Of a DNA stretch of 42,898 nucleotides, positions 4,399 through 37,325 are shown piece by piece. Both the position numbers and the translations under genes were made by a program. The notes below the pieces were generated by a model that was not told the origin of the DNA, made no database searches, and saw nothing but the letters and a program-made list of their open reading frames with translations. The DNA lies in contig JABIHA010000099.1 of the NCBI GenBank assembly GCA_018649885.1, forward strand, positions 1-42,898, given 5' to 3'. Positions within the stretch are counted from its first letter, which is position 1, and each line of letters opens with the position of its first letter. The stretch comes from Bacteriovoracaceae bacterium (lineage in GTDB: Bacteria > Bdellovibrionota > Bacteriovoracia > Bacteriovoracales > Bacteriovoracaceae).

Positions 4399-5538
4399 TT
4401 AAGGGAATAAATGAGATTTCATAATATGTCCAAAGCCTACAATTTGTGAAATATTTCGCGATCTAACCTTGATTCGATTGCCGGTATTTCCTTCCAAAGA
4501 AATAATCGCATCATCACTTCGAATCGCTAAAAACATACCAGTATGATTGGCCCTACCATTGCCGCTAGTATCTATCGCCAACCAATCTCCTCTTTTTGCC
4601 CTTTTGAGCTCTCCAAGAGTGGTGACTGAGTGGTAGTCACGATCAAAATATCGGCGCAATTGTCCGACATTGGAAAGATTGGTGATACCACCAAGAGTCT
4701 CTTGAGTGACCCAAGAATAAAACTCACTACACCACCATTCAATTAAGTCAGCACCATAATGGGTTCCATTTGCCCAACGGCTACCATTGAGTCCCACCAG
4801 TCCTTGCACTTGATTAAAGTATTGTTTAAAACCTTGCAGGAGGATCTTAGTTCTCGCCAGGCTAACGGGATTACTGGGATCGGTAGTGGTGGAGTAAAAA
4901 AGAATTTTACCGTAATCAGAAATCCGCCGATAAGTTCCATCATCATTTTTTACATAGAAGCGTGCTTGCAAAAAGTAAGGGGTATTTCCCACCAGGCCAT
5001 CCAAGCGCAAGGGACTTGCCCAGTGCATTCCTAAGTTAAGATTGTAATAGCGCTTCAAACTAACTTTTATTAACGGGGTAGTTTTTAATTTGTCATCGGT
5101 CTCCGCCAATCTGCGATAGCGGATTCTGGCGTAGAGCTCCTGTTTTAAATGCCAAAGGTCTAAGACTTCTTTTTTATTAATTTTGACCCTAGCGCCAATG
5201 GAAGTATGAGTATTTTTATATCCTTTTTTGGAATAAACATACTCAGTTTCATCTACTCTATTATTACAGTTATCATCGATATTATTAAATGCCACTTCGG
5301 TTCGATAGGGGTGTATATCGGCATCAAAATCATGGCAATCCCCCGTGGCAGAAACAAAATGCTTGGGACAAACATAAGTTTGTTCGTAGCTGACTTGAAA
5401 GTGAACCGCCGGAGAACCAATCTTGGCGTAATTATCGTCGTCCTGATCATAGACATTGTGATAGCACTTGATGTCATATGTTTGTTGGGCGAAAGCGTTA
5501 ACGGAAAACAAGAAAAAAAGACTAATGAAGTACTTCAT
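4399..5538 (-). CDS. Secreted CHAP-domain amidase/peptidase with a MopE-related metal-binding motif
   Basis: Signal peptide (VNAFA). DCHDFDADIHP..TEV..NNIDDNCNNRVDE resembles the MopE-related repeat. C-terminal WCSEFYSWV, GD, HTGM, EGN is the CHAP Cys/His/Glu pattern. GAGGAG RBS. Confidence 0.8.
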   Translation of the reverse strand: MKYFISLFFLFSVNAFAQQTYDIKCYHNVYDQDDDNYAKIGSPAVHFQVSYEQTYVCPKHFVSATGDCHDFDADIHPYRTEVAFNNIDDNCNNRVDETEYVYSKKGYKNTHTSIGARVKINKKEVLDLWHLKQELYARIRYRRLAETDDKLKTTPLIKVSLKRYYNLNLGMHWASPLRLDGLVGNTPYFLQARFYVKNDDGTYRRISDYGKILFYSTTTDPSNPVSLARTKILLQGFKQYFNQVQGLVGLNGSRWANGTHYGADLIEWWCSEFYSWVTQETLGGITNLSNVGQLRRYFDRDYHSVTTLGELKRAKRGDWLAIDTSGNGRANHTGMFLAIRSDDAIISLEGNTGNRIKVRSRNISQIVGFGHIMKSHLFP

Positions 5539-7355: not shown

Positions 7356-7640
7356 CCTATTTTCTCCAAGCTAGTAAATCCATGGTTTTTAGGGACCTTG
7401 GGCGCCCGGCTAGGGTCCAATAAAGAGGGCTTTTTTGAGGCCGTCGATAATTCAGAATGAGCAAAGTAAATCTGGTCAACTCTCTGAACTCCAGTTAACA
7501 ATTTTGCCTCAAACGACCTTTTGTCTTAACTATTCTTAAGATTTTTTTGTAAAAGATTATTTATCCACTCCCTTCTAAGCTGTGAAATACTATTTAAATT
7601 GATTTTTCCTGACCCTTTTAAAAACCATATAGGAATTAAT

Positions 7641-8957
7641 ATGCAGATTGGAATAATAATAGGGAGAATTGGCGGAGTTGATGGAGTCGCTCTTGAGACA
7701 GAAAAATGGATTGAGGTTTTGGAGAACCTTGGACATGAAATTTTTATCATTACGGGAAAAGTCACCAAAGACATCCACAAAAATATCCAAATCCTACCAG
7801 AATTAAACTTTCACCACCCCCTAGTGATTAGAGAGCAAGACGATGCTTTCTATCTTCAGCGGGTTAAAGAAGATACCATTGAAAAGAGGTTAGTTCATCT
7901 TACCCAACATATTGAAAAAGAATTATTGAGGTGGTTGGTAAAAAATAAAATCGATATTTTTATTTCGGAGAATGCTTCTTCTCTTCCCTGTCATTTAAGT
8001 ATGGGCTGGGCGATACAACAAGTGGTTGAGGAAACAAAAATTCCAACCATCACACACGATCATGATTTTCACTGGGAACGAGGGAAACGCTATAAAAGCA
8101 AGTACAAAATCGTACAGAAAATAATCAAAAATTGTTTTCCCCTTAGAGAGAGAGAGGTTGTTCACGCAGTAATCAATAGCCCTGCACAACAAGAACTAGA
8201 AAAAAGATTCGACTTACCCTCTGTGATAGTACCAAATGTTATGGACTTTAAAAAAGATTTCGCTAAGCGAGATCATTTTAACTCATCTCTTTTGGAGACA
8301 CTTGGTCTTTTTAAGGGAGACATTCCCATTTTCCAAGTAACCCGAGTCGTAAAGAGAAAAGGAATAGAGACCGCTATCAAGCTCATTAGTGAATTAGACA
8401 ACCCCAATATCAAACTCATTATTACAGGATGTATTGATGATGATCACAATGCTGAATATTACGGGGAGCTCACAGACCTGACCAATAGTCTACATTTAGA
8501 AAATCAAATTCGCTTTGCTTCAAATTCCTTTGGAAATGAGAGACAGATTGGCCCTCACCTAGCTTCAGATCTCTCTGCCAAAATGATCAAAAAAATGGGA
8601 AATGAAAATAAAATATATTCAATAAGTGATGCCTATGCCTATGCCACTGCTTGCACTTACTTTAGCTCCTATGAAGGTTTTGGTAATGCCTTTATCGAAT
8701 CCATTCAGGCCAAGGTCCCCATTTTTGTCAACAATTACAAACCTGTCTTTTGGCCCGATATTGGCATTCATGGCTTCAAAGTTATCATGCTTGAAAATAA
8801 CAGGCTCACAAATACAGCTATTAAAGATATGAAAAATATTATCTTTGACAAAAAATACGCCAAGGAAATTGCGGAACACAATTATAAATTAGGAACAAAA
8901 TTGTTCTCCTACGATGTCTTAGAAAAAAAACTTCTAGAACTTATATCAGGTTTTTAA
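7641..8957 (+). CDS. Glycosyltransferase family 4 (mannosylglucosylglycerate-synthase-like)
   Basis: DGVALETEKW, HDFHWER, TRVVKRKGIE, S.YEGFGNAFIES. AGGA RBS before ATG 7641. Confidence 0.85.
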   Translation: MQIGIIIGRIGGVDGVALETEKWIEVLENLGHEIFIITGKVTKDIHKNIQILPELNFHHPLVIREQDDAFYLQRVKEDTIEKRLVHLTQHIEKELLRWLVKNKIDIFISENASSLPCHLSMGWAIQQVVEETKIPTITHDHDFHWERGKRYKSKYKIVQKIIKNCFPLREREVVHAVINSPAQQELEKRFDLPSVIVPNVMDFKKDFAKRDHFNSSLLETLGLFKGDIPIFQVTRVVKRKGIETAIKLISELDNPNIKLIITGCIDDDHNAEYYGELTDLTNSLHLENQIRFASNSFGNERQIGPHLASDLSAKMIKKMGNENKIYSISDAYAYATACTYFSSYEGFGNAFIESIQAKVPIFVNNYKPVFWPDIGIHGFKVIMLENNRLTNTAIKDMKNIIFDKKYAKEIAEHNYKLGTKLFSYDVLEKKLLELISGF

Positions 8958-8959
8958 AA

Positions 8960-11900
8960 ATGAGAGATACAAATAAAAAAAACGGATACCGTTCTCTTTT
9001 AAATGAACTTAAACGGAAAAAGATCAACACTTGGTTTGACTTAACTTTATTCTTAGATCAAATCAAGGATAATCGCAAGAAAATCACCCCCTATCATAAC
9101 CTTGAGGACTTCTACAAAGGTATTGCTAAAGGAGTGGCCTTTATCACCTTTGACTATGGGATCGATGGCGTCACCATTGAAGTGGTCAAATATGCCAAAA
9201 CTTTAGAAAAAATTCTTTCCCCCTACAGATCAAAACAAAGGAAGAATGAAAACCTTATCCATCTTTTTGGAGGTTTTTTTTCGAAAGAAACTGAAATCCT
9301 TTTCTCCGAAGACTGGAAAACTCATCATCATGCCAATTTCCAAGCCTTTGATAGTTGGTGGGGCTACTACGACCTTTTCTTTAAAGACCTCTCCAGAGGA
9401 AGTGAGAGTTATAACAAGTTGGCCAAGGGGATCTGGGAACAAGTCATTGATATATGTATAGAGTTCGGTCACACCATTGTTCATGAGGATATTCGCCTTT
9501 TAATTCCTGTAAATGTAAATTCAAACCCTGGAAATCCACCCCTTGCCTATGCGCTTTGTCTTCTCAGTGAATATTTAAAAATCCCAGTACTTTGTAGCCA
9601 TCATGATTTTTTTTGGGAAGATGGTCATCCTCCCAACTCGAATAAAACCGGAGCTCGTGACCATTTTTTTAAAAACTACTTTGTGGGTGAGATATTTTCA
9701 GTAATCGAGCAGGTTTACCCATGGGATAGCCCCTTGTGGTTCCACACTGTCATCAATACTAAGCAAAAAGAAGAGCTAGTTCATAAAAATGGTTTTAATC
9801 CAATTGCCATAGAGGTCATACCAACCTCTATGGAATTGAAGAAACAAAGAGGCATCAATGAAAATGATAGAAGAGATATAATCAATCGATTGCAAATCAT
9901 TTTTCAGTGTGGAGAGGACAAAGGGTGTGTGCAATGTACAGATGATCGGGCCTGCACCCACTCTCTTGACTCATTTTGTGAAGATCCTCTAGAATTTGCA
10001 AAAAAAAGTAGACCTATTTTAATTGCCTATCAAATAAAAAAAACAATTTCGCTCGTTAAAAATAACATTATTCTCCTGCAACCAACACGAATCATTAGAC
10101 GGAAGCGAATAGAGATTGACTTTGAATTCATCCATAAACTTCTTCAAAATGAAGAGTTTAAGACCTATTTTTTGAAATTCATTGATCTTACCATCACTCT
10201 TCTAATCACAGGTCCCTACCAAATTAGTCAGTCTGAATATTTTATTGATCTAACAAAAAGATATAAAGACTTTATCGAAACTCTACCCACAGAGTTTCGA
10301 GACAGGATATTTTTGGGCTTGATCTTCGGACTCGAAAACAATCCCGATTTAAAAGAAAGGGGCCTTAAGGATCTCACCATCTATGACATCTACAATATTT
10401 CTTCAATTGTCCTTCTCCCTAGTGAAACTGAGGGGAGGGGACTTCCTATCATTGAAAGTTGTGCACTGGGCATCCCTATCATTAGTCATCGCTATACACC
10501 CGAGCACGTTTTCAAGGAAGTCATTGGAGAGGATCTAGAAAAAAGTAAACGTCTACAAATTCTCTCTTTTAAAGGGAAAACTATTCCCGATGACATTATC
10601 AAAAGTTCCGCTCAGCTCATCATGTACCCAGAGTGTAATCAAAAAGTTGCAGATGAAAATCACCTCGCAGTACACCATCGCTTTGGCCCTAAAAATTTAG
10701 AAATGGCCTTTGTTAAATCTTTAATTACTCTTTTTTGGAGAAGTCGTCCTAATAAACATCTTATCAATAAAGTAAAATCAAAAATCAAAGAGTACAAGGA
10801 AAGAACGTCCTACCAAGAAGGCTTTCAATTAATCACGGTCTGTGAGAATAGAAGGTATATGCCTGGAATCTCAATAATTGAGTACATGACCATGTTAAAA
10901 TCATTAATCGACCCCAGTTATTTTAGAACTGAGGAGAGAAAGTTAAAATCTAGGTTGATGAGGTTTGCATTAAAATTTTTGACCATTAGAAATGAAGGAA
11001 AACCATTAACAAGAGATGAGTACATTCGCTTTTTCAAACTCATCGAGTACCTCCTAGGCTACTATGATGGAAAAGACCCATTGATCATGGATCACTCACT
11101 TAGCTATCGACATCGCAATCAACGACATTACCCCTATCGAAAAATGACAGAACAGGAGCTCTGTGGTGTTATCGCCTCGCTTGGGAGAGATATTATAAAA
11201 GTAAATCGTCTCCCCGAGATCCCTCCAGTGAATTTTGCTCGTTTTGACAAAATTGAACAAGCAATATGCGATCTCCTCAATATTCCCAAGTTTAGGATCG
11301 CCATCGACGATACCGATTATTTGCTAAAAATACTAAAATCTAAACGTTCAATTGCCTATTTTCCCGGTGATAGATTGGCCCAAGAGATGGAGGTATTCGC
11401 TCTTTATTCTTATAAAATTAGGATGGGGCTCGATCCCCTTGCCCGACTAGATGATGATTCACTTGCTCATTTTGATCAAACTGAAGTCGGAACTTTTAAT
11501 ATCTTTGTGCGAGAGCAGCCTTTAACTTCAATCCATTACCATAGTGTTGTTAACTGGATCAACAAAAATGCCTTTAGCGAAATAAAAAAATTATACAAAA
11601 TTGGTTTTATCAGAATCATAAAAACAAAAGTCCTTTCCCTGGGACAGCACCTCGGACAATTGGGAAAGGTGGCCTTAAAAGAGCTACTCGCAATAAAAAA
11701 ACAAAATGGGGTGGTGATTAGCTTTGGAAGAAATCCCTTCATGCTAGATCTGATTGATATCGACTCCATTAGACTGGGGCGGGCACGGAATAACTACAAG
11801 GCCAATTTTATGGGCATTGGTAAAAACGATGCATTTATCCAGTGGGTGCCAGCCGGTTTTTCACCCAGTTTGGGCTTTCCCACTCCAATTCAAAGACCCA

Positions 11901-13174
11901 CAGATTTTTCACTTTTTTTTAAGTCAAAGGAATACCTTGAATCTGTGAAAAAATATGGTGAAGAAACCATCTTAAAAAATCTCAAAACCCAATGTAGTCG
12001 ATACAATATGCCAGTTGCTGAAGCACTCTCTTGCTTTTTAAAAGATCAGGATCATAAAGTAGAGGGAAATGCTATTATTAGTCACACCATAAGTGGTACG
12101 TACCCAGATCAATCCCCTTGGCTTGGCAATATCGTAAAGATCAGCAAGGAGCTGAAAAAAACATTCAAAATTAGGTATTTAAAACAAGATGCCAAGACTG
12201 TTGCCTCTATGGTTTCCGATTTTGAAGGTAAGAGCGGAAAGAAAGTAAAAGTTGCATGGAATGGTGGCTATATTCTTAACCCTGAACTCGTGGGAAAGCT
12301 TGGAATTGATGAAAATTTTATCGGCTCACCACTAGGACTCTTAATAAATGAGAGCCAAATTAAATCCCCCCCACTATTTAATAAAGTTGCCCTGCTCATC
12401 GATAAACAGGGTCACGCTCATATTGACCATGTCAATTTACAAGCAGGACTAACAATTATTTTTCCAGATGATTCGGTCCTCTTGCTCTCCTCCAAGCAAA
12501 GAAATAAAATATTAAAGAATGAGGCAAGCTTCTTTGATCTTTTCTCCAAAAAGGAGTATTCGATTAAAGGTTTTATCGCCTACCGTTTTGTCGGGAACAA
12601 AATCATTGAAAAAATTGAAGAGCAGGAAAACCTGTGTATTTTGCCGATAGGAATCACTCTCTGCGTTCCCCGAGGCTCTCAGTGGGACAACTACTCAGCA
12701 GGGGATGAAGTCACATTTTCAATTCCCAGCTTGGAAGAATACGTCGAATCTGTCGAGGCGGGTCCACTCCTCGTAAAAAATGGTAGACAGGCGATTAATA
12801 TGGAAAAAGAGGGTTGGACAACAGACTTTTCCATCGCCACTCAAGCAGCACGATTAGACTATATCAATATGAGAGGCCCCAAGTTAGGAGTTGGAATAAC
12901 GTCTTCTGGCGAAATCATTATTGTCGCCATTAATGGAAGAATTCGAGAAAGTGTCGGAGCGACTCACGACGAATTGGCCAATATTCTAATTGATGAGGGA
13001 TGCATGGAAGCGATGGGATTTGACCCTGGGGGTTCAGTTACGCTCTTGGTTGACGGAAAACAACTCAATATTTCCCCCTACAATCCCAATTACGAAGACA
13101 ATATCTATTCTTTAGACCCAACGCCGAGAAAAGTAGGCAGCGCTGTCTTTGTTCTTAAAGATGAGAAGGACTAA
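8960..13174 (+). CDS. Multidomain protein: GT4 glycosyltransferase, unknown central region, C-terminal phosphodiester glycosidase (NAGPA-like) domain
   Basis: N-terminal DGVTIE, HDFFWE, TRIIRRKRIE, EGRGLPIIES. C-terminal NGGY, AGPLLVKNG, PKLGVG, INGR..SVGAT..ELA, AMGFDPGGS. Confidence 0.85.
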   Translation: MRDTNKKNGYRSLLNELKRKKINTWFDLTLFLDQIKDNRKKITPYHNLEDFYKGIAKGVAFITFDYGIDGVTIEVVKYAKTLEKILSPYRSKQRKNENLIHLFGGFFSKETEILFSEDWKTHHHANFQAFDSWWGYYDLFFKDLSRGSESYNKLAKGIWEQVIDICIEFGHTIVHEDIRLLIPVNVNSNPGNPPLAYALCLLSEYLKIPVLCSHHDFFWEDGHPPNSNKTGARDHFFKNYFVGEIFSVIEQVYPWDSPLWFHTVINTKQKEELVHKNGFNPIAIEVIPTSMELKKQRGINENDRRDIINRLQIIFQCGEDKGCVQCTDDRACTHSLDSFCEDPLEFAKKSRPILIAYQIKKTISLVKNNIILLQPTRIIRRKRIEIDFEFIHKLLQNEEFKTYFLKFIDLTITLLITGPYQISQSEYFIDLTKRYKDFIETLPTEFRDRIFLGLIFGLENNPDLKERGLKDLTIYDIYNISSIVLLPSETEGRGLPIIESCALGIPIISHRYTPEHVFKEVIGEDLEKSKRLQILSFKGKTIPDDIIKSSAQLIMYPECNQKVADENHLAVHHRFGPKNLEMAFVKSLITLFWRSRPNKHLINKVKSKIKEYKERTSYQEGFQLITVCENRRYMPGISIIEYMTMLKSLIDPSYFRTEERKLKSRLMRFALKFLTIRNEGKPLTRDEYIRFFKLIEYLLGYYDGKDPLIMDHSLSYRHRNQRHYPYRKMTEQELCGVIASLGRDIIKVNRLPEIPPVNFARFDKIEQAICDLLNIPKFRIAIDDTDYLLKILKSKRSIAYFPGDRLAQEMEVFALYSYKIRMGLDPLARLDDDSLAHFDQTEVGTFNIFVREQPLTSIHYHSVVNWINKNAFSEIKKLYKIGFIRIIKTKVLSLGQHLGQLGKVALKELLAIKKQNGVVISFGRNPFMLDLIDIDSIRLGRARNNYKANFMGIGKNDAFIQWVPAGFSPSLGFPTPIQRPTDFSLFFKSKEYLESVKKYGEETILKNLKTQCSRYNMPVAEALSCFLKDQDHKVEGNAIISHTISGTYPDQSPWLGNIVKISKELKKTFKIRYLKQDAKTVASMVSDFEGKSGKKVKVAWNGGYILNPELVGKLGIDENFIGSPLGLLINESQIKSPPLFNKVALLIDKQGHAHIDHVNLQAGLTIIFPDDSVLLLSSKQRNKILKNEASFFDLFSKKEYSIKGFIAYRFVGNKIIEKIEEQENLCILPIGITLCVPRGSQWDNYSAGDEVTFSIPSLEEYVESVEAGPLLVKNGRQAINMEKEGWTTDFSIATQAARLDYINMRGPKLGVGITSSGEIIIVAINGRIRESVGATHDELANILIDEGCMEAMGFDPGGSVTLLVDGKQLNISPYNPNYEDNIYSLDPTPRKVGSAVFVLKDEKD

Positions 13175-31122: not shown

Positions 31123-33258
31123 TTATAATCCTAATTTTTTAAGAAATGATACATTGGATATTGGCCTGTCGAGGAATAGTTCTACTGATTTAGTGATGTC
31201 TCTAGAACTTCCCTGAGAATAAATTTCTTGCCTTAATTTCAGACCTATTTCGGGATCTAAAAACCCTTTTTCGCTTTCAGAAAATTTGGATGCCATATCT
31301 GCAGCGATAGAATCAGACCATGCATAACCATAGTATCCAGCACTATATCCACCAGCAATATGTCCAAAATTAGTTAGAAAAGAAGCACCTTCTGCATGAG
31401 GCAAATGAACATCACCTAAGATTTTATTAGAATAGGCAACAAGATCTGGTAGATCCTCTTCTTTTAACTGGGTATGTAATTTAAGATCAAGCAGGCCATA
31501 AGAAAATTGCACTTTATAACCTGTTGCAACTGTCGCTTTTTCTACTTCTTCAATTTTCTTTAAAAAATTTGGATCTATTTTTGTTACGCCATCTTTGTAA
31601 TTAACAGCAAAGGTATCAAGTACCTGTTTATCCATAACAAAGTATTCAAGCATTTGTGAGGGCGCTTCTACAAAATCTCTGGCAACATTTGTTCCGGCCA
31701 TTGAAGGATATTTTGCTCTAGAAAGCATATTGTGTAAACCGTGACCAAATTCATGAAAAAGAGTTTCAACTTGACCAAAGGATAATAAGGAAGGTTTATC
31801 ACCTACAGGTCGTGGGAAGTTACAAATTAAGGCCCCTACAGGCTTTCTAAAACTTCCATCTTGATATTGTTTACCTGAAATCAAACCAAAGTGAGCAAAG
31901 TGACCATATTTTTCTTCTTTAGGTCGGGGATAGAGATCAAGATAAAGATAACCAAGTACTTCCTTTGATTTTGCATCTGAAACAGAAATTAATTGCAACT
32001 CATCGTCTGCAAACTTAGCAAAGTTTTCAATAAAATCAATTTTGAGTGAAAATACTTTTTCAAAAACGCTTAACATTCCCTTGAGAGTTTTATCAAGGGT
32101 GAAAAAGTCTTTCAATGCATTTAAATCTAGATCATATTTTTCCTTTTTAAGTATATTTTCATAATAGGAAACATCCCAATACTTTATTACAGCATTCGCT
32201 TCTCCTGTGGCCTTGACTTTCAGTAGTCTGAGTACTTCAATTTCTTGGTCAAATTTAGGTTGAAGTCCAGAATTGAGGTTACTCAAGAATTCGACTGCAT
32301 TGTCCCCAGTTTTTGCCATTCGATCTTCAGTTTGATAATCGGCCCAATTCTTATAACCAAGAATTTCTGATATTCTCATTCTTGTTTTTAGTATTTCTTG
32401 CATTACTGGGAGATTAATATCTTTGGCCACTGTTGATCTTGCAAGAGTTGCCTTCTTTCTCACTTCTTCTTTAGGAGAATATTTATAGACTGAACTGATT
32501 TGAGAATAAATAGTTGGTGATACATCAAAGCTACCATCTTCTTTAGCAGCAGGAGCGAGTTCTGATTCAAGGACTGATTTTGGCATTCCCTCCATCTCTT
32601 CTTTGGCAAAATGAGTGGAATTTTTTGATCCAAACGCTCTTACATTGGCACTAAATTTAGTGGACAACTCAGAGAGCTTCTTTTTTAGGCCTTTTAATTC
32701 TTCTTTTAATTTCTCATCTTCAAGGCTTAATCCAGACTTCTTGTAACCATTAATGGTGTCAACTACTAGCTTTTGATCCTGTCCTGATAATAAAACTCCC
32801 TTTTTTGTAAAGGCCATCAATTTATCAAATACATCCTTTCTTAATGAAGCATCAACATACCAAGAGTTATATTTCTGATTGAGTGCTTTTGATTTATCTC
32901 TCAAGACTTTTGAAGTAGAGGCGCTTTGCAGTAAGTAGTTTATAGAATCATTTCTTTCAAACTGATCAAAGGTGTTGTCGAGGGCCAAAAAAGTATTCTC
33001 AAAGCTAAGCTCTGAACCTTTTAAGTTTGCAATTTTATCGAGCGAATTATTAGCATTTTTAAGAGAGCTATTAACTAATTGTTCTAAACCATCCTCTGTA
33101 GTTGGAAATACCGGAAGATCAGCGTTTACTAAGTTATCACTAAATTTAACTGGAGCTGGTTTATTGCCTGGGCCACTATTATCTGATCCACAACTTGTCA
33201 TAGCAATACTAAGAGTGAGTAAGAGAGCAGATCTCCATACGAATTTTATTAGTGGCAT
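31123..33258 (-). CDS. M3A family (thimet oligopeptidase-like) metallopeptidase, lipoprotein
   Basis: LFHEFGHGLH, DFVEAPSQMLE, FGHIAGGYSAGYYGYAWS. Lipobox MTSC. Confidence 0.93.
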   Translation of the reverse strand: MPLIKFVWRSALLLTLSIAMTSCGSDNSGPGNKPAPVKFSDNLVNADLPVFPTTEDGLEQLVNSSLKNANNSLDKIANLKGSELSFENTFLALDNTFDQFERNDSINYLLQSASTSKVLRDKSKALNQKYNSWYVDASLRKDVFDKLMAFTKKGVLLSGQDQKLVVDTINGYKKSGLSLEDEKLKEELKGLKKKLSELSTKFSANVRAFGSKNSTHFAKEEMEGMPKSVLESELAPAAKEDGSFDVSPTIYSQISSVYKYSPKEEVRKKATLARSTVAKDINLPVMQEILKTRMRISEILGYKNWADYQTEDRMAKTGDNAVEFLSNLNSGLQPKFDQEIEVLRLLKVKATGEANAVIKYWDVSYYENILKKEKYDLDLNALKDFFTLDKTLKGMLSVFEKVFSLKIDFIENFAKFADDELQLISVSDAKSKEVLGYLYLDLYPRPKEEKYGHFAHFGLISGKQYQDGSFRKPVGALICNFPRPVGDKPSLLSFGQVETLFHEFGHGLHNMLSRAKYPSMAGTNVARDFVEAPSQMLEYFVMDKQVLDTFAVNYKDGVTKIDPNFLKKIEEVEKATVATGYKVQFSYGLLDLKLHTQLKEEDLPDLVAYSNKILGDVHLPHAEGASFLTNFGHIAGGYSAGYYGYAWSDSIAADMASKFSESEKGFLDPEIGLKLRQEIYSQGSSRDITKSVELFLDRPISNVSFLKKLGL

Positions 33259-33494
33259 ATTATCCCCCGGCAACAAAATGTTTAAACGCATCTACTAAAA
33301 ATACGAAGTTTTTATCTATATAATGCAATTGGAATGAGGCCACAAATAGTAGGGTCTCTAAATATCTCTAAATTACGTGATAAGTACTGAGAAATTTGAA
33401 AATAACAATTCAAGATGTAAGAAAAAACAAGTATTCAATACAATCGAAGGTCCATTTACTATATATCTGAAAGTTAAGGTGGCATTACGCACCA

Positions 33495-36400
33495 TTAACG
33501 AAAACCCTTGATGTGATCGAGATAGTACTCGGGAGCAGCTATATTGTAAGCGCCTAAGTAAACCTGCCATTCATAGAGTTTGTTGGGAGCAATATTGGGT
33601 TTTTTATCGATAACGTCATAAGCATAAGCGTGTTGGACTACACCGTTATCGCCTTTGACATCAATTTCTATTCGTTCATAACCTCGATTACTACATTCGA
33701 AGTGGTCAAGCGTTTTTAAGTCCTCATCTGTGATACTAACCAAAAGCCCCCAAACTTTATGCCCTGGAGCTGCCATCATGTCTGCGACACCTCCTTTCCT
33801 GGCCTCGGAGTAGCGGGTGTAACGGAGTTCATAGTCGTGAGCAGTGGCCCTCTTAATCACTTTGGCACTAGGGCAACGATTTTTAATTTGGTGGATATCC
33901 ATGTTTGAACCAAAACAAAAAACCAAGTTTTCACTTAAAGATTTGTCTGGTCCAAATCCACCCCCGCCTGGTGTACTGATAATGAGGCGATCACCCGGTT
34001 GAACTTCCACGGAAAAGCACTCTGACAATTCGGTGATCTCATTTTTTGATTCCAGTAGATTTATTCCTCGCGTCGCCTGCTTCCCTTGGCCCAGGCCTTG
34101 GGGAGACTCCTCTCGAAATTGGGTGATCATGCTGACACTCATCTTTTCAAGAAATACAATTTTGCGATAAAGCCCATCTCCTCCGAAATTTTGACCTGCT
34201 CCGCCACTTCCCAGGCGTATGGCCATTAGCTCGACTAAAACAGGGAAGCGTGACTCCATCACTTCAGGGTCGGTTAAAAGGGAGTTTGTCATATTCACTT
34301 GGACAGCACTTGCGCCCACTGCGGACGCAGTTGCGCCACTGCCTCCGGCCAAAGTTTCATAATACTGATATTTTTCGGTACCAAAACTAAGATTATTCAT
34401 CGTGCCTTGAGAATTGGCCTTGACCCCTAAGGCCTCAAAAACCAAGTCACAGATCACTTGTGAGGTTTCTACGTTCCCAGCGACAACGGCGTCGCTTGCG
34501 CCAGGATTTAGCATACAGTTTTCTGGAACTTGAATTTCAACACTTCTCAGGACTCCTTCATTGAGTGGGATATCTTCCATGATCAGGCAACGAAGAGCAA
34601 ACATGATCGAGGCCTTAACCACCGGCAGAGGTGTATTAAAGTTATTTTGCAATCTTGGTGAGCTACCTGCGAAGTTAAAAAAAAGTACTTTATCACGATA
34701 GAAAATCTCTAATTCTATCACTCTGTCCCCAGTGATAGTTTTCTTTACCTTACTAGAATCAAAGTTTTGCAACGCTTTTTCTATTTTCCTGTGGGTATAT
34801 TCGATAAGAGATTTGCCCATCTTTTGAACATAGGCCGTCCCACATTTATTTAAAATAGTGACAAGTTCTTCCAGCCCTTTTTGGTTTGCTGCCAGTTTTG
34901 CCTTGATGTCATGAAGATTGAGCTCATATTTTCGTACCGGATAAGGGCCAGAGCACAAAATATCCCTTAAGAGATCCTCATTAAAGTTACCTTGATGGAC
35001 CAATTTATGCAATTTGATGACTACCCCTTCCTGCTCTAAACACGTGCTATGTCCTGGCATGGATCCAGGGCTCACTCCACCAATGTCAGCGTGATGGCCA
35101 CGAGATGCCAGCCACATGACAATTTTTTCTTCAAAAAATACAGGGGTGATCACAGTCACGTCAGGAAGGTGGGTGCCACCACTCGTAGGGTCATTGGTGA
35201 TAAAGCTATCGCCGGGTTCTATCTTTGAAGCATGACTGATGACAAAGCGAACCGCATCACCCATGGAGCCCAAATGAACAGGTATATGGGGAGCATTGGC
35301 GATCAATTCTCCTTTTTCGTTAAACAAAGCACAGGAAAAATCATTGCGCTCCTTTATATTCACTGAACGGGCAAGCCGCTTAAGGGTAAGACCCATTTGC
35401 TCAGCGATAAACTGAAACCTTTGATAAAATATTTCAAGCTCAATGCGTTCGTCTCTGATATTTTTGACTTGTTCTTTTGGCTCAAATTTAAACTGCCAAA
35501 CTCCATTTTCAAAACGCTTACCACTCCAGTTTTTTTCTACAACTAGGCAAGTATTGTTCTCACTAATGAGGCCTTCATCATTAATCGACTCTGGTGAAGA
35601 TTTGAATTCCAATTGATGTGAATGCTCTTTAATATGAGATTTTAAGACGATGGTATCGCAAACAGGGGGGCCTTGAAGAGCAATCCCAAATGTTTGTTGA
35701 TAAAGGGTTTTGAATTTTTCCGAGGCCAAATAATATGACTCTGCTTGTATTTGAAATTCATGGTTACTGTCTTTAGCTCTTAGTAAGAAAAAGGGAGTTG
35801 AGTCGAAGGATTTTGAATCGAGCTTTTTTTCCATTTCTATTTTTAATGAATTGTGACCATCAACAAATCTGCCATTTAATCTGAGTCCAACCTGGGCCTG
35901 ACCTATTCCAAAAGCCGAAAGCACACTGGAAAGGGGGTGAATCAAGACACTCTCAATGCGCAGGCTCTCTGCCACTTTGAGGGCCATTTGTCCGCCAGCA
36001 CCACCAAAACTCACCAGCGTAAACTCTTTAGGATCAAGACCTTTTTCGACAGACACTTTGTGAATGGCGCGAGACATGGTCTCGACTGCAACCTCGATGA
36101 AGCCTTCGGCAAGCTCCAAGGCCGTAAGCCCTGAATCCTTAGAGAGCTCATTAAACTTCTCTCGGACGATCTTTTTATCAAGTCCACAATTTTGGTTAGG
36201 CCCAAATACTTTAGGGAACTTTTCTGGATCTATTCTTCCAAGAAAAAGGTTGGCATCAGTGATAGTTAAAGGCCCACCATTTTGATAACATGCAGGGCCT
36301 GGATAAGCGCCTGCTGATTCAGGTCCGACTTTTAATCTCCCATCGTCATAAGACAGGATTGAGCCTCCACCGGCTGCGACGGTATGAATATCCATCATGG

Positions 36401-37325
36401 GAGTAAGAAGTTTTATACCATGAAATTCCGGATGGTAATTGATCTGGACCTCACCACCATAAATGGAAACATCAGTTGAGGTTCCTCCCATATCAAAGCA
36501 AATGATTTTTTTCTCACCCTGCTTTTTTGCCGCATGGGTTGCACCAATCAGCCCACCGGCCGGTCCGGATAACAATGCATTATATCCTTTAAACCTATTT
36601 GCGTTACATAAACTCCCATCGGATTGCATGTAAAGAATGTTTTTTATGTTCAACAGGCCTTCAAGCTTTTGGGTGTACTGCTTGAGGTAGGGGGAGAGGT
36701 AGGCATCAAAGACCGCTGTTTCAGTTCGAGAAATATAATTGGCGACAGAGCTTACACGGTGAGAGAGAGAAACATATTCAAAGCCAAGCTTATAAGCGAG
36801 ACTTTCCAGAGCTAGCTCGTGCATAGGATTGATCGTTGAGTGCATAAAAGAAACCGCAAGGGACTTAATCCCCTTATTTAAAATGCGATGTAATTCAAAT
36901 TGTGCGATATCTTGGTCAAATTCTGTAAGTTCATAGCCTTCGGCATTCATGCGGCCTGGTATTTCTGTACTGTAGCAGTGGAGAGGCTCAATTTTTTCAA
37001 TGTCTAAGTCAAATAATCGTGGACGATTCTGCTGCCTAATGTTTAATACATCTCGTTGACCTAAAGTTGTTACCAGAGCACACTTGACACCTTTTTTCTC
37101 GAGGAAAGCATTGGTGGCAACAGTCGTTCCGAGTCGCACTTGTTCAATTGCCTCATGGAAACGTCTATGCCCAATTATGTGAGCGATTCCTTCTACAATG
37201 GCCGATTCATAGTTCACACTTTGAGAAAGTAGTTTATGAGTCCTATAAACCCCTTCTCGATTAACAGCAATAAAATCGGTAAAGGTACCGCCGCAATCAA
37301 TCCAAAATGTCCACTTCGTTGTCAT
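33495..37325 (-). CDS. 5-oxoprolinase (hydantoinase A+B) fused to a C-terminal gamma-glutamylcyclotransferase domain
   Basis: DCGGTFTD, LSGPAGG, DMGGTSTDV, PHIPVHLGSM, GTHLPD, HHADIGG, TPGGGGFG. Then FCFGSNM...VWG.L...LDHFE....Y.R, a GGCT/AIG2-like pattern. Confidence 0.9.
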   Translation of the reverse strand: MTTKWTFWIDCGGTFTDFIAVNREGVYRTHKLLSQSVNYESAIVEGIAHIIGHRRFHEAIEQVRLGTTVATNAFLEKKGVKCALVTTLGQRDVLNIRQQNRPRLFDLDIEKIEPLHCYSTEIPGRMNAEGYELTEFDQDIAQFELHRILNKGIKSLAVSFMHSTINPMHELALESLAYKLGFEYVSLSHRVSSVANYISRTETAVFDAYLSPYLKQYTQKLEGLLNIKNILYMQSDGSLCNANRFKGYNALLSGPAGGLIGATHAAKKQGEKKIICFDMGGTSTDVSIYGGEVQINYHPEFHGIKLLTPMMDIHTVAAGGGSILSYDDGRLKVGPESAGAYPGPACYQNGGPLTITDANLFLGRIDPEKFPKVFGPNQNCGLDKKIVREKFNELSKDSGLTALELAEGFIEVAVETMSRAIHKVSVEKGLDPKEFTLVSFGGAGGQMALKVAESLRIESVLIHPLSSVLSAFGIGQAQVGLRLNGRFVDGHNSLKIEMEKKLDSKSFDSTPFFLLRAKDSNHEFQIQAESYYLASEKFKTLYQQTFGIALQGPPVCDTIVLKSHIKEHSHQLEFKSSPESINDEGLISENNTCLVVEKNWSGKRFENGVWQFKFEPKEQVKNIRDERIELEIFYQRFQFIAEQMGLTLKRLARSVNIKERNDFSCALFNEKGELIANAPHIPVHLGSMGDAVRFVISHASKIEPGDSFITNDPTSGGTHLPDVTVITPVFFEEKIVMWLASRGHHADIGGVSPGSMPGHSTCLEQEGVVIKLHKLVHQGNFNEDLLRDILCSGPYPVRKYELNLHDIKAKLAANQKGLEELVTILNKCGTAYVQKMGKSLIEYTHRKIEKALQNFDSSKVKKTITGDRVIELEIFYRDKVLFFNFAGSSPRLQNNFNTPLPVVKASIMFALRCLIMEDIPLNEGVLRSVEIQVPENCMLNPGASDAVVAGNVETSQVICDLVFEALGVKANSQGTMNNLSFGTEKYQYYETLAGGSGATASAVGASAVQVNMTNSLLTDPEVMESRFPVLVELMAIRLGSGGAGQNFGGDGLYRKIVFLEKMSVSMITQFREESPQGLGQGKQATRGINLLESKNEITELSECFSVEVQPGDRLIISTPGGGGFGPDKSLSENLVFCFGSNMDIHQIKNRCPSAKVIKRATAHDYELRYTRYSEARKGGVADMMAAPGHKVWGLLVSITDEDLKTLDHFECSNRGYERIEIDVKGDNGVVQHAYAYDVIDKKPNIAPNKLYEWQVYLGAYNIAAPEYYLDHIKGFR

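Follow-up and report, generated by a model that had tools for sequence, protein, structure and literature searches.

The window, a 42,898-nucleotide stretch of DNA from a Bacteriovoracaceae bacterium, carries at 33495..37325 (-) a single open frame of 1276 amino acids with no internal stops. The encoded chain runs from a 5-oxoprolinase-type hydantoinase/oxoprolinase A+B part through an 8-residue linker into a C-terminal gamma-glutamylcyclotransferase (GGCT) domain. Hydant_A_N (36792..37307 (-), aa 7-178) contains K31 and the phosphate-1 motif DCGGTFTD (aa 10-17), as defined in PMC8453981, and is followed by the actin-like ATPase part, Hydantoinase_A (35889..36728 (-), aa 200-479), with DMGGT (278-282) and GAYPGP (339-344). 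A shortened, poorly conserved Hydant_A_C region (35448..35888 (-), aa 480-626), about 55 aa below ordinary homologues, leads to Hydantoinase_B (33948..35447 (-), aa 627-1126), which holds the metal ligands D662, H719, D722 and H744 and ends in TPGGGGFG (1118-1125). The linker (33924..33947 (-), aa 1127-1134) varies in sequence among the fusions, is near-constant in length and was modelled with a pLDDT of 84. The GGCT domain (33498..33923 (-), aa 1135-1276) is of the human GGCT (C7orf24) type. Its FGSN loop (33903..33914 (-), aa 1138-1141), the counterpart of human Y22-G23-S24-N25, lies within FCFGSNM (1136-1142), and E1210 (codon 33696..33698 (-)), the counterpart of the human catalytic E98, lies within LDHFE; VWGL and YER are also present. 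Pfam matches exceeded the curated cut-offs for Hydant_A_N, Hydantoinase_A and Hydantoinase_B (E 1e-168) and, in the tail, for GGACT (1135-1238, E 1.6e-11) and AIG2_2 (1190-1271, E 3.7e-9). These matches, the motifs and the unbroken frame bear out the in-frame fusion of a 5-oxoprolinase with a GGCT proposed in the preliminary description. The fusion protein sequence shows no signal peptide.

That description also named a stop at the junction as a possible objection. None was found in assembled contigs, as distinct from raw reads: contigs from 3 of 4 runs, representing three separate studies, bridge the junction unchanged with 0 differing letters and 0 gaps (X3 33514-34342, X4 33200-34185, X6 33882-34122; none of the three is marked as a possible source), while the listed X7 contigs end on both sides of it without crossing. 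No RNA data set was listed, a result that is neutral on expression. These contigs, together with the fused relatives and the conservation of the protein, rule out chance read-through or misassembly. A recent degenerate appendage was likewise ruled out because the tail and the B domain are about equally conserved. Across fusions, pairwise identity averages 53% for the GGCT domain and 56% for the B domain, and the two diverge jointly (Spearman 0.85, from pairs that are not independent). The fusion is therefore genuine and no assembly artefact.

The oxoprolinase half has the three domains, the ATP motifs and the Asp-His-Asp-His site of the hydantoinase/oxoprolinase ATP-dependent lactamase family. 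It resembles eukaryote-type OPLAH/Oxp1 (Hydant_A_N + Hydantoinase_A + Hydant_A_C + Hydantoinase_B) in being one chain in A-B order, with the D-H-D-H metal site and all ASKHA ATP motifs (DxGGTxxD, DMGGT, GxxPGP and a conserved Lys, by the definition in PMC8453981). The four metal ligands align with D41, H99, D102 and H124 of caprolactamase CapB and are invariant in 32/32 full-length fusions, as are the ATP-motif residues tested save the first Gly of the adenosine motif (26/32). Identity to ordinary bacterial single-chain homologues is about 40-50% over residues 480-1130, and the closest unfused single-chain relatives, where named, are mostly called 5-oxoprolinase or hydantoinase B/oxoprolinase, these being automatic names. 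Unlike those homologues, the oxoprolinase part is only ~1125 aa long compared with a median near 1203, and no Hydant_A_C (PF19278) match is present. Two anchor motifs lie 171 aa apart here, and in ordinary homologues this span has a median of 227 aa and a range of 189-253 (n=78; in the span list G106 is a pattern artefact and P0034 went unmatched), so the compactness suspected earlier is real. Because the PF19278 match is also absent from some ordinary homologues, its absence marks a variant and does not exclude function. Across fusions this region averages 26% pairwise identity, and its spans along the tree are 239, 203, about 182 and about 171 aa.

The nearest solved A/B structures are caprolactamase CapAB (6yra), N-methylhydantoinase (7hk5/9h03) and the acetone and acetophenone carboxylases; no eukaryotic OPLAH was among the solved-structure matches. 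The ATP and metal residues are common to all of these and the modelled B domain matches CapB with a Z of 37.0. In contrast, their B parts are only 18-25% identical to that of the fusion, they act on other substrates and they lack a GGCT domain, CapB having its own small C-terminal domain at the GGCT position (PMC8453981). NCBIfam scores fell far below the curated cut-offs (CapA 288 vs 1000 bits, CapB 150 vs 1000, ApcC 158 vs 1500).

In a sequence search the isolated tail hit human GGCT (E 2.2e-8). In order to characterize its fold we modelled aa 1128-1276. Structure prediction returned the GGCT fold that had been anticipated, the model (pLDDT 92.8) lying nearest to human GGCT (PDB 2pn7, 2i5t, 2rbh, 3cry) with a TM of 0.85-0.88, a Z of 21.5, an rmsd of 1.9 Å over 146 residues and 27% identity. 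YkqA (Z 19.1), ChaC2 (12.8), the allophanate hydrolase C-domain (10.2) and GGACT-type A2LD1 (8.4) followed. ChaC and GGACT have the BtrG/GGCT fold and a catalytic Glu in common with the tail, yet as structural matches they are clearly weaker. Counterparts of human G23, S24, N25, E98, Y105, Y125 and Y139 (G1139, S1140, N1141, E1210, Y1216, Y1236 and Y1251) are invariant in 32/32 full-length fusions. The likely catalytic Glu is retained as claimed, E1210 falling at the alignment position that carries the substitution in human E98Q and E98A structures.

Apart from being fused, the tail differs from human GGCT at Y22, which is Phe, and at G99, which is Cys, here and in most close relatives. The Tyr of the YGS(N/L) substrate-binding loop is Phe in 24/32 fusions including this one, is kept in 8/32, and is present in 60/60 stand-alone relatives; the residue following the catalytic Glu is Cys in 25/32 and Gly in 4/32. 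Both substitutions had been pointed out in the preliminary description. On sequence comparison, what they add up to is derived states, because deeper-branching fusions keep YGSN (8/32) and EG (4/32). Either change could alter or lessen activity, which raises the question of whether the tail is a weak or inactive GGCT fold that binds 5-oxoproline or gamma-glutamyl compounds in a sensory or accessory role. Two independent losses of the domain (below) fit such a role, as does the appending of GGCT-like folds elsewhere (allophanate hydrolase, a Paulinella transit peptide). The C-domain of allophanate hydrolase/urea amidolyase (4iss, 5i8i) is a precedent for a GGCT-like fold joined to an amide-hydrolysing enzyme, although it is 8% identical, its host enzyme is unrelated and the fusion protein has no AH_C Pfam match. 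The invariance of the catalytic Glu and three active-site Tyr in 32/32 fusions and the fully canonical deep-branching fusions make this the least probable of the readings we weighed.

We propose, with a probability of roughly two in three, that the single polypeptide is a two-step salvage enzyme converting gamma-L-glutamyl amino acids to free amino acid and glutamate, a reading drawn from the domain architecture, the conservation of the protein, its predicted folds and the genome context. The order of the gamma-glutamyl pathway is textbook (PMC4538363), and the earlier reasoning that the two halves catalyze consecutive steps is upheld. In the first step, with E1210 as the acid/base residue, the C-terminal domain would cyclise the gamma-glutamyl moiety without ATP, giving 5-oxoproline and an amino acid. 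In the second, by analogy with the caprolactamase structure, ATP would activate 5-oxoproline at the actin-like A site, and the activated compound would pass to the B-domain metal site (D662/H719/D722/H744) to be opened to glutamate. The benefit of fusion would most likely be fixed 1:1 co-expression and proximity, so that the product of the first step does not accumulate; a sealed tunnel would not be needed. Likely substrates would be imported cytoplasmic gamma-Glu-amino acids from GGT transpeptidation, together with gamma-Glu-Cys produced by the GshA of the cell itself, and the oxoprolinase half would additionally remove 5-oxoproline formed spontaneously. Since enzymes for each of these two successive steps are already known, the chemistry is not new. 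A search of titles and the starts of abstracts, in a corpus that excludes most subscription journals, returned no report of the fusion.

In this genome the fusion gene is the sole oxoprolinase-family match and the sole GGCT-family match; GshA, GshB and one GGT are encoded, while ChaC and PxpA were not found. According to PMC12756093, the human-GGCT type acts on gamma-glutamyl amino acids, ChaC being specific for glutathione and GGACT for gamma-glutamylamines. PMC7022552 names GSH among GGCT targets. The latter statement would favor direct, ChaC-like degradation of glutathione, by which the cell would feed on prey glutathione, and since ChaC was not found in any of 212/212 family genomes this niche is open. 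We nevertheless regard direct digestion of the prey glutathione mentioned in the preliminary description as very unlikely. The tail is clearly further from glutathione-specific ChaC than from human GGCT (Z 12.8 vs 21.5), with ChaC not its best structural match and the ChaC profile (PF04752) unmatched by the fusion protein. Glutathione would likely need a preceding GGT step and, with no signal peptide on the enzyme, prey glutathione would need import. The fusion occurs, moreover, in just 10/237 family genomes, which also leaves a general role in predation unsupported.

Both halves could instead be active on other substrates, such as gamma-glutamyl amines, Glu-Lys isopeptide released by protein digestion, or a gamma-glutamyl compound bearing a substituent, with the compact oxoprolinase opening the resulting lactam. 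Enzymes with the same motifs can differ in this way: substrates vary across the family, and caprolactamase is without 5-oxoprolinase activity (PMC8453981). The fusions form a separate clade in which the A_C region is remodelled and two GGCT active-site positions have derived residues, and GGT is missing from one near-complete fused genome (G135, 99% complete). However, the predicted fold is far nearer GGCT than GGACT (TM 0.85-0.88 vs 0.57-0.59), and no second 5-oxoprolinase was seen in fused genomes (PxpA 0/9 tested), an argument that is weak because PxpA occurs in just 6/212 family genomes. Overall we consider a shift to other substrates improbable. GGT shows no enrichment among fusion carriers (8/9 fused genomes vs 162/212 overall), and neither GGT co-occurrence nor PxpA exclusion is informative as support. 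Gene neighborhoods gave no functional support either. Among fused and compact loci compared over 1.5-4.5 kb flanks, with some DNA entered twice, we found no conserved operon context. The only close common neighbor of fused genes is a 155-aa ORF present in two genomes, its copies being 75% identical, and other matches were weak; two unfused genomes of one genus have flanks in common, and the downstream M3 peptidase was unmatched in the other loci compared.

Channelling of 5-oxoproline, also suggested in the preliminary description, receives an indirect hint from structural modelling. In the AlphaFold model of B + GGCT (aa 622-1276, 655 aa; pTM 0.91, mean pLDDT 92.6) the GGCT domain appears docked. 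By a rough calculation a freely placed 147-aa domain would give a pTM of ~0.75-0.81, and 0.9 would need an inter-domain error of ~5-8 Å. The spacer between the flanking motifs is 13-15 residues in 31/31 measurable fusions (32 total; P0019 was omitted from this count and from the first tree as its motif was unmatched), while linker identity is 14%. Furthermore, the family already has an internal 40 Å tunnel that joins the A and B sites (PMC8453981). A docked GGCT might thus pass 5-oxoproline straight to the ATP site, or the sites might cross-regulate. Against this, the model excludes the A domain, where substrate enters caprolactamase (PMC8453981), and the 8-residue linker by itself limits placement and so raises pTM. 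In addition, the proteins that lost the tail have kept the oxoprolinase part, and since 5-oxoproline is stable there is little for channelling to protect. We therefore view a channelled or coupled enzyme as unlikely. Equally doubtful is its extended form, in which a rigidly docked GGCT feeds a streamlined oxoprolinase whose A_C shrank stepwise after fusion, so that in cultivable predators a single coupled or channelled enzyme would run the cytoplasmic half of Meister's gamma-glutamyl cycle, perhaps under redox control by the Cys next to the catalytic Glu.

Among the homologues listed, the fusion is present in 30 of the 34 top-ranking protein clusters, and the GGCT domain is not in the remaining 86 of 120. 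Named carriers are Halobacteriovorax vibrionivorans (WP_114705236.1) and Pseudobacteriovorax antillogorgiicola (WP_132322318.1), and the carriers make up a small set of predatory-type marine bacteria. A single-protein scan of genome contigs gave zero matches, and an Atlas search gave ordinary oxoprolinase clusters only, without a model. The fusion is an inherited architecture: the tree is compatible with one gain and two losses of the GGCT domain, which was lost at least twice, and 2/4 genomes that lost the fused domain have no GGACT-family match. A quick tree separated one outlying fusion, P0178, yet a single fused-GGCT clade was not rejected (p-AU 0.82; 15 fused + 25 stand-alone rows), leaving an independent origin unsupported. 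A search for relatives of its tail gave P0178 alone (1 of 714 candidates).

As a Rosetta-stone fusion, the protein links bacterial C7orf24-like GGCTs, a large, mostly unassayed family with 5877 representative proteins at E ≤ 0.001, to bacterial single-chain oxoprolinases. This link lends support to a bacterial gamma-glutamyl cycle arm that leads from GGCT to oxoprolinase. Coupling or channelling of 5-oxoproline could be tested directly on one expressible protein that occurs in named species, and naturally unfused sister proteins would provide the controls. For structural work on this oxoprolinase type the compact chain is likewise a candidate; the solved relatives we found comprise an N-methylhydantoinase, caprolactamase and carboxylases.

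Positions 33495-37325 (minus strand) hold one ORF of 1276 aa with zero internal stops. Pfam matches above cut-off assign it Hydant_A_N (aa 7-178), Hydantoinase_A (aa 200-479), Hydantoinase_B (aa 627-1126), GGACT (aa 1135-1238) and AIG2_2 (aa 1190-1271), which bears out the preliminary description of a hydantoinase A+B chain running into a GGCT domain without a stop. In sequence comparison human GGCT matches the final 146 aa (E 2.2e-8). Contigs from three of four compared sequencing runs, all of them marine metagenomes and from three studies, bridge the junction without differences or gaps, and no stop is present there. The fusion is real and conserved. Because the GC content of both gene halves (0.434) falls at about the top 5% among the genome's 1229 long ORFs, there is a mild hint that the whole gene was gained laterally. 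A 75-bp intergenic copy of its 3' end (window 33496-33570), 92% identical, lies on another contig (G000:C63:2101-2175, locus L003), and a contig of run X4 has loose ends at exactly 33496/33570, which fits a second copy of the 3' end.

The predicted structure of the tail (pLDDT 92.8) is that of a GGCT fold, as had been proposed, with human GGCT as its best structural match (TM 0.85-0.88, Z 21.5), followed by YkqA (Z 19.1), ChaC2 (12.8), the allophanate hydrolase C-domain (10.2) and A2LD1 (8.4). E1210 aligns to the residue that is mutated in two human GGCT structures, to Gln (3cry) or to Ala (2rbh); passages of PMC7022552 name this residue, E98, as the acid/base Glu. The likely catalytic Glu is therefore kept, as first suspected, and in 32/32 full-length fusions. 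Also invariant in these 32 are G1139, S1140, N1141, R1150-P1152, D1207, Y1216, Y1236 and Y1251, the three Tyr residues being putative active-site positions by alignment to human GGCT and a ChaC2 residue list. We regard a non-catalytic tail as highly improbable. In the oxoprolinase body, the equivalents of the caprolactamase ATP motifs and metal site (D41/H99/D102/H124, as defined in a section of PMC8453981) are D10-D17, K31, D278-T282 and G339-P344 and, by alignment, D662, H719, D722 and H744; all are invariant in 32/32 fusions with the sole exception of G339 (26/32). Mean pairwise identity among fusions is 61% in the A part, 26% in the A_C region (aa 480-626), 56% in B and 53% in GGCT. At the two unusual positions flagged earlier, FGSN for YGSN and EC for EG, residue 1138 is Phe in 24/32 fusions and Tyr in 8/32 (Tyr in 60/60 stand-alone relatives), and residue 1211 is Cys in 25/32 and Gly in 4/32. 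Since the canonical residues sit in deeper branches, Phe at 1138 and Cys at 1211 are derived states.

A model of the B and GGCT domains reached pTM 0.91, with Z 34-38 to acetophenone carboxylase, CapB and N-methylhydantoinase and Z 22 to GGCT; by a rough calculation such a pTM requires a defined inter-domain position. This value, together with a spacer of 13-15 residues in 31/31 measurable fusions, suggests that the GGCT domain is docked on the B domain. The docked model and fixed spacer length would also suit channelling or coupling between the two active sites, but the model excludes the A domain and a short linker alone restricts placement, and we consider such coupling unlikely.

When the tail was used as query, 14 clusters among 130 candidates were recovered, every one a full-length fusion. 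With residues 480-1130 as query, 7999 candidates were scored and the best 120 examined; the top 34 separated by score, 30 being fused and 4 ending just past the PGGGG motif (the compact unfused relatives), and a GGCT Pfam match was found in 0/86 of the others. When 1.84 billion representatives were searched with a profile, the best 150 included two further full-length fusions, P0178 and P0201, plus fragments. Taxon names, which P0178, P0201 and P0031-P0033 lack, place the architecture in MAGs of Halobacteriovoraceae, in several Halobacteriovorax (H. vibrionivorans among them) and in Pseudobacteriovorax antillogorgiicola of the class Oligoflexia. A genome scan gave 12 loci, of which 9 are fused (titled Halobacteriovoraceae, Halobacteriovorax, Bacteriovorax, Bacteriovoracia or Bdellovibrionales) and 3 are weak (31%) Verrucomicrobia matches. 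These names point to a Bacteriovoracaceae/Halobacteriovoraceae type for the family to which the window belongs. Within the family, 10/237 genomes from 7 genera carry the fusion (one copy cut at a contig end), 4 have the compact protein without the tail, 5 have an ordinary homologue, and 8 show nothing but a stand-alone GGCT match (E 1e-10); among 300 genomes sampled from the phylum's other families there were no fusions and three unfused homologues. The fusion is a patchy, accessory trait. P0126, a 169-aa fragment on a 1.2-kb contig with an oxoprolinase-like PGGGG ending followed by a canonical GGCT domain, is probably another deep-branching fusion. In the nearest stand-alone relatives a tandem pair of GGCT domains is a common arrangement (P0125, P0166, P0168, P0215, P0218), two of these proteins also scoring against the allophanate hydrolase C-domain profile, and P0219 (398 aa) oddly pairs HEPN_AbiV, a defence-type nuclease family, with a C-terminal GGCT fold.

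In the oxoprolinase-part tree a supported branch parts all fusions and the four compact unfused proteins from ordinary homologues. A 22-row subset forces three fused/unfused state changes. In a separate test on 15 fused and 25 stand-alone rows, one common origin for the fused GGCT domains was not rejected (p-AU 0.82). The simplest reading is one gain and two losses of the tail, on a tree whose root relies on four ordinary homologues and in which P0178 is a long branch. A grouping of the subset's fused rows that leaves out the compact unfused proteins was rejected (p-AU 5e-51). The compactness originally noted for the oxoprolinase part holds in the A_C region: the span across it, measured between two anchor motifs, is 168-174 aa in most crown members (177-181 in two unfused ones) versus a median of 227 aa in 78 ordinary homologues; deeper members have 178-185 aa, P0201 203 and P0178 239.

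A literature search by titles and abstract openings yielded no report of this architecture, and such a fusion goes unmentioned in the sections consulted of PMC13274462, which records eukaryote-type oxoprolinases in 115/984 prokaryotic genomes. Public databases label the proteins just as oxoprolinases. This fusion of two known consecutive enzymes is apparently undescribed.

No conserved gene neighbourhood was found around the fusion in the compared loci. The next gene downstream, in the same orientation and after a gap of 203 bp that contains no terminator-like site, encodes an M3-family oligopeptidase with a lipoprotein-like N-terminus (31123-33291, minus strand); it had no match beside the fusion in the other compared loci. 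Elsewhere in the window, 7599-13174 (plus strand) encodes a glycosyltransferase and then a 1404-aa protein with a weak glycosyltransferase-1 match and a C-terminal NAGPA phosphodiester glycosidase domain. The ORF at 4399-5538 (minus strand, 379 aa) carries a MopE-type metal-binding motif and matches CHAP weakly, short of the cut-off (E 0.006).

The fusion gene is the sole oxoprolinase-family and sole GGCT-family match in its 92%-complete genome, where GshA (PF08886), GshB and a GGT, apparently with a lipoprotein signal at its N-terminus, are present and neither ChaC nor PxpA was found. Glutamate-cysteine ligase type varies among fused genomes, being PF08886 here (C151:18159-19328) and PF04262 in G091, G135 and G246, while none of three families was found in G106. 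Across the family, GGT occurs in 162/212 genomes (8/9 fused), PxpA in 6/212 (0/9 fused genomes tested) and ChaC in 0/212, counts that fit salvage and do not discriminate. In passages of PMC12756093 the substrate of ChaC is GSH, that of GGACT is gamma-glutamylamines and that of GGCT is gamma-glutamyl amino acids, but one passage of PMC7022552 places GSH among GGCT targets. Direct GSH breakdown by the fusion protein seems to us very unlikely. That both halves act on other substrates is somewhat less improbable, though still doubtful. With these queries most family genomes have no recognised 5-oxoprolinase (OPLAH type in 19/237), yet GGT is widespread; possibly 5-oxoproline is tolerated or exported there, or else handled by an enzyme that is not recognised as such. 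For the fused genomes we favor, at a probability of roughly 0.68, salvage on one chain, for which we infer both catalytic steps: the tail would release an amino acid and 5-oxoproline from a gamma-Glu-amino acid and the oxoprolinase body would convert 5-oxoproline to glutamate with ATP, the benefit of fusion being co-expression and proximity of the two activities.
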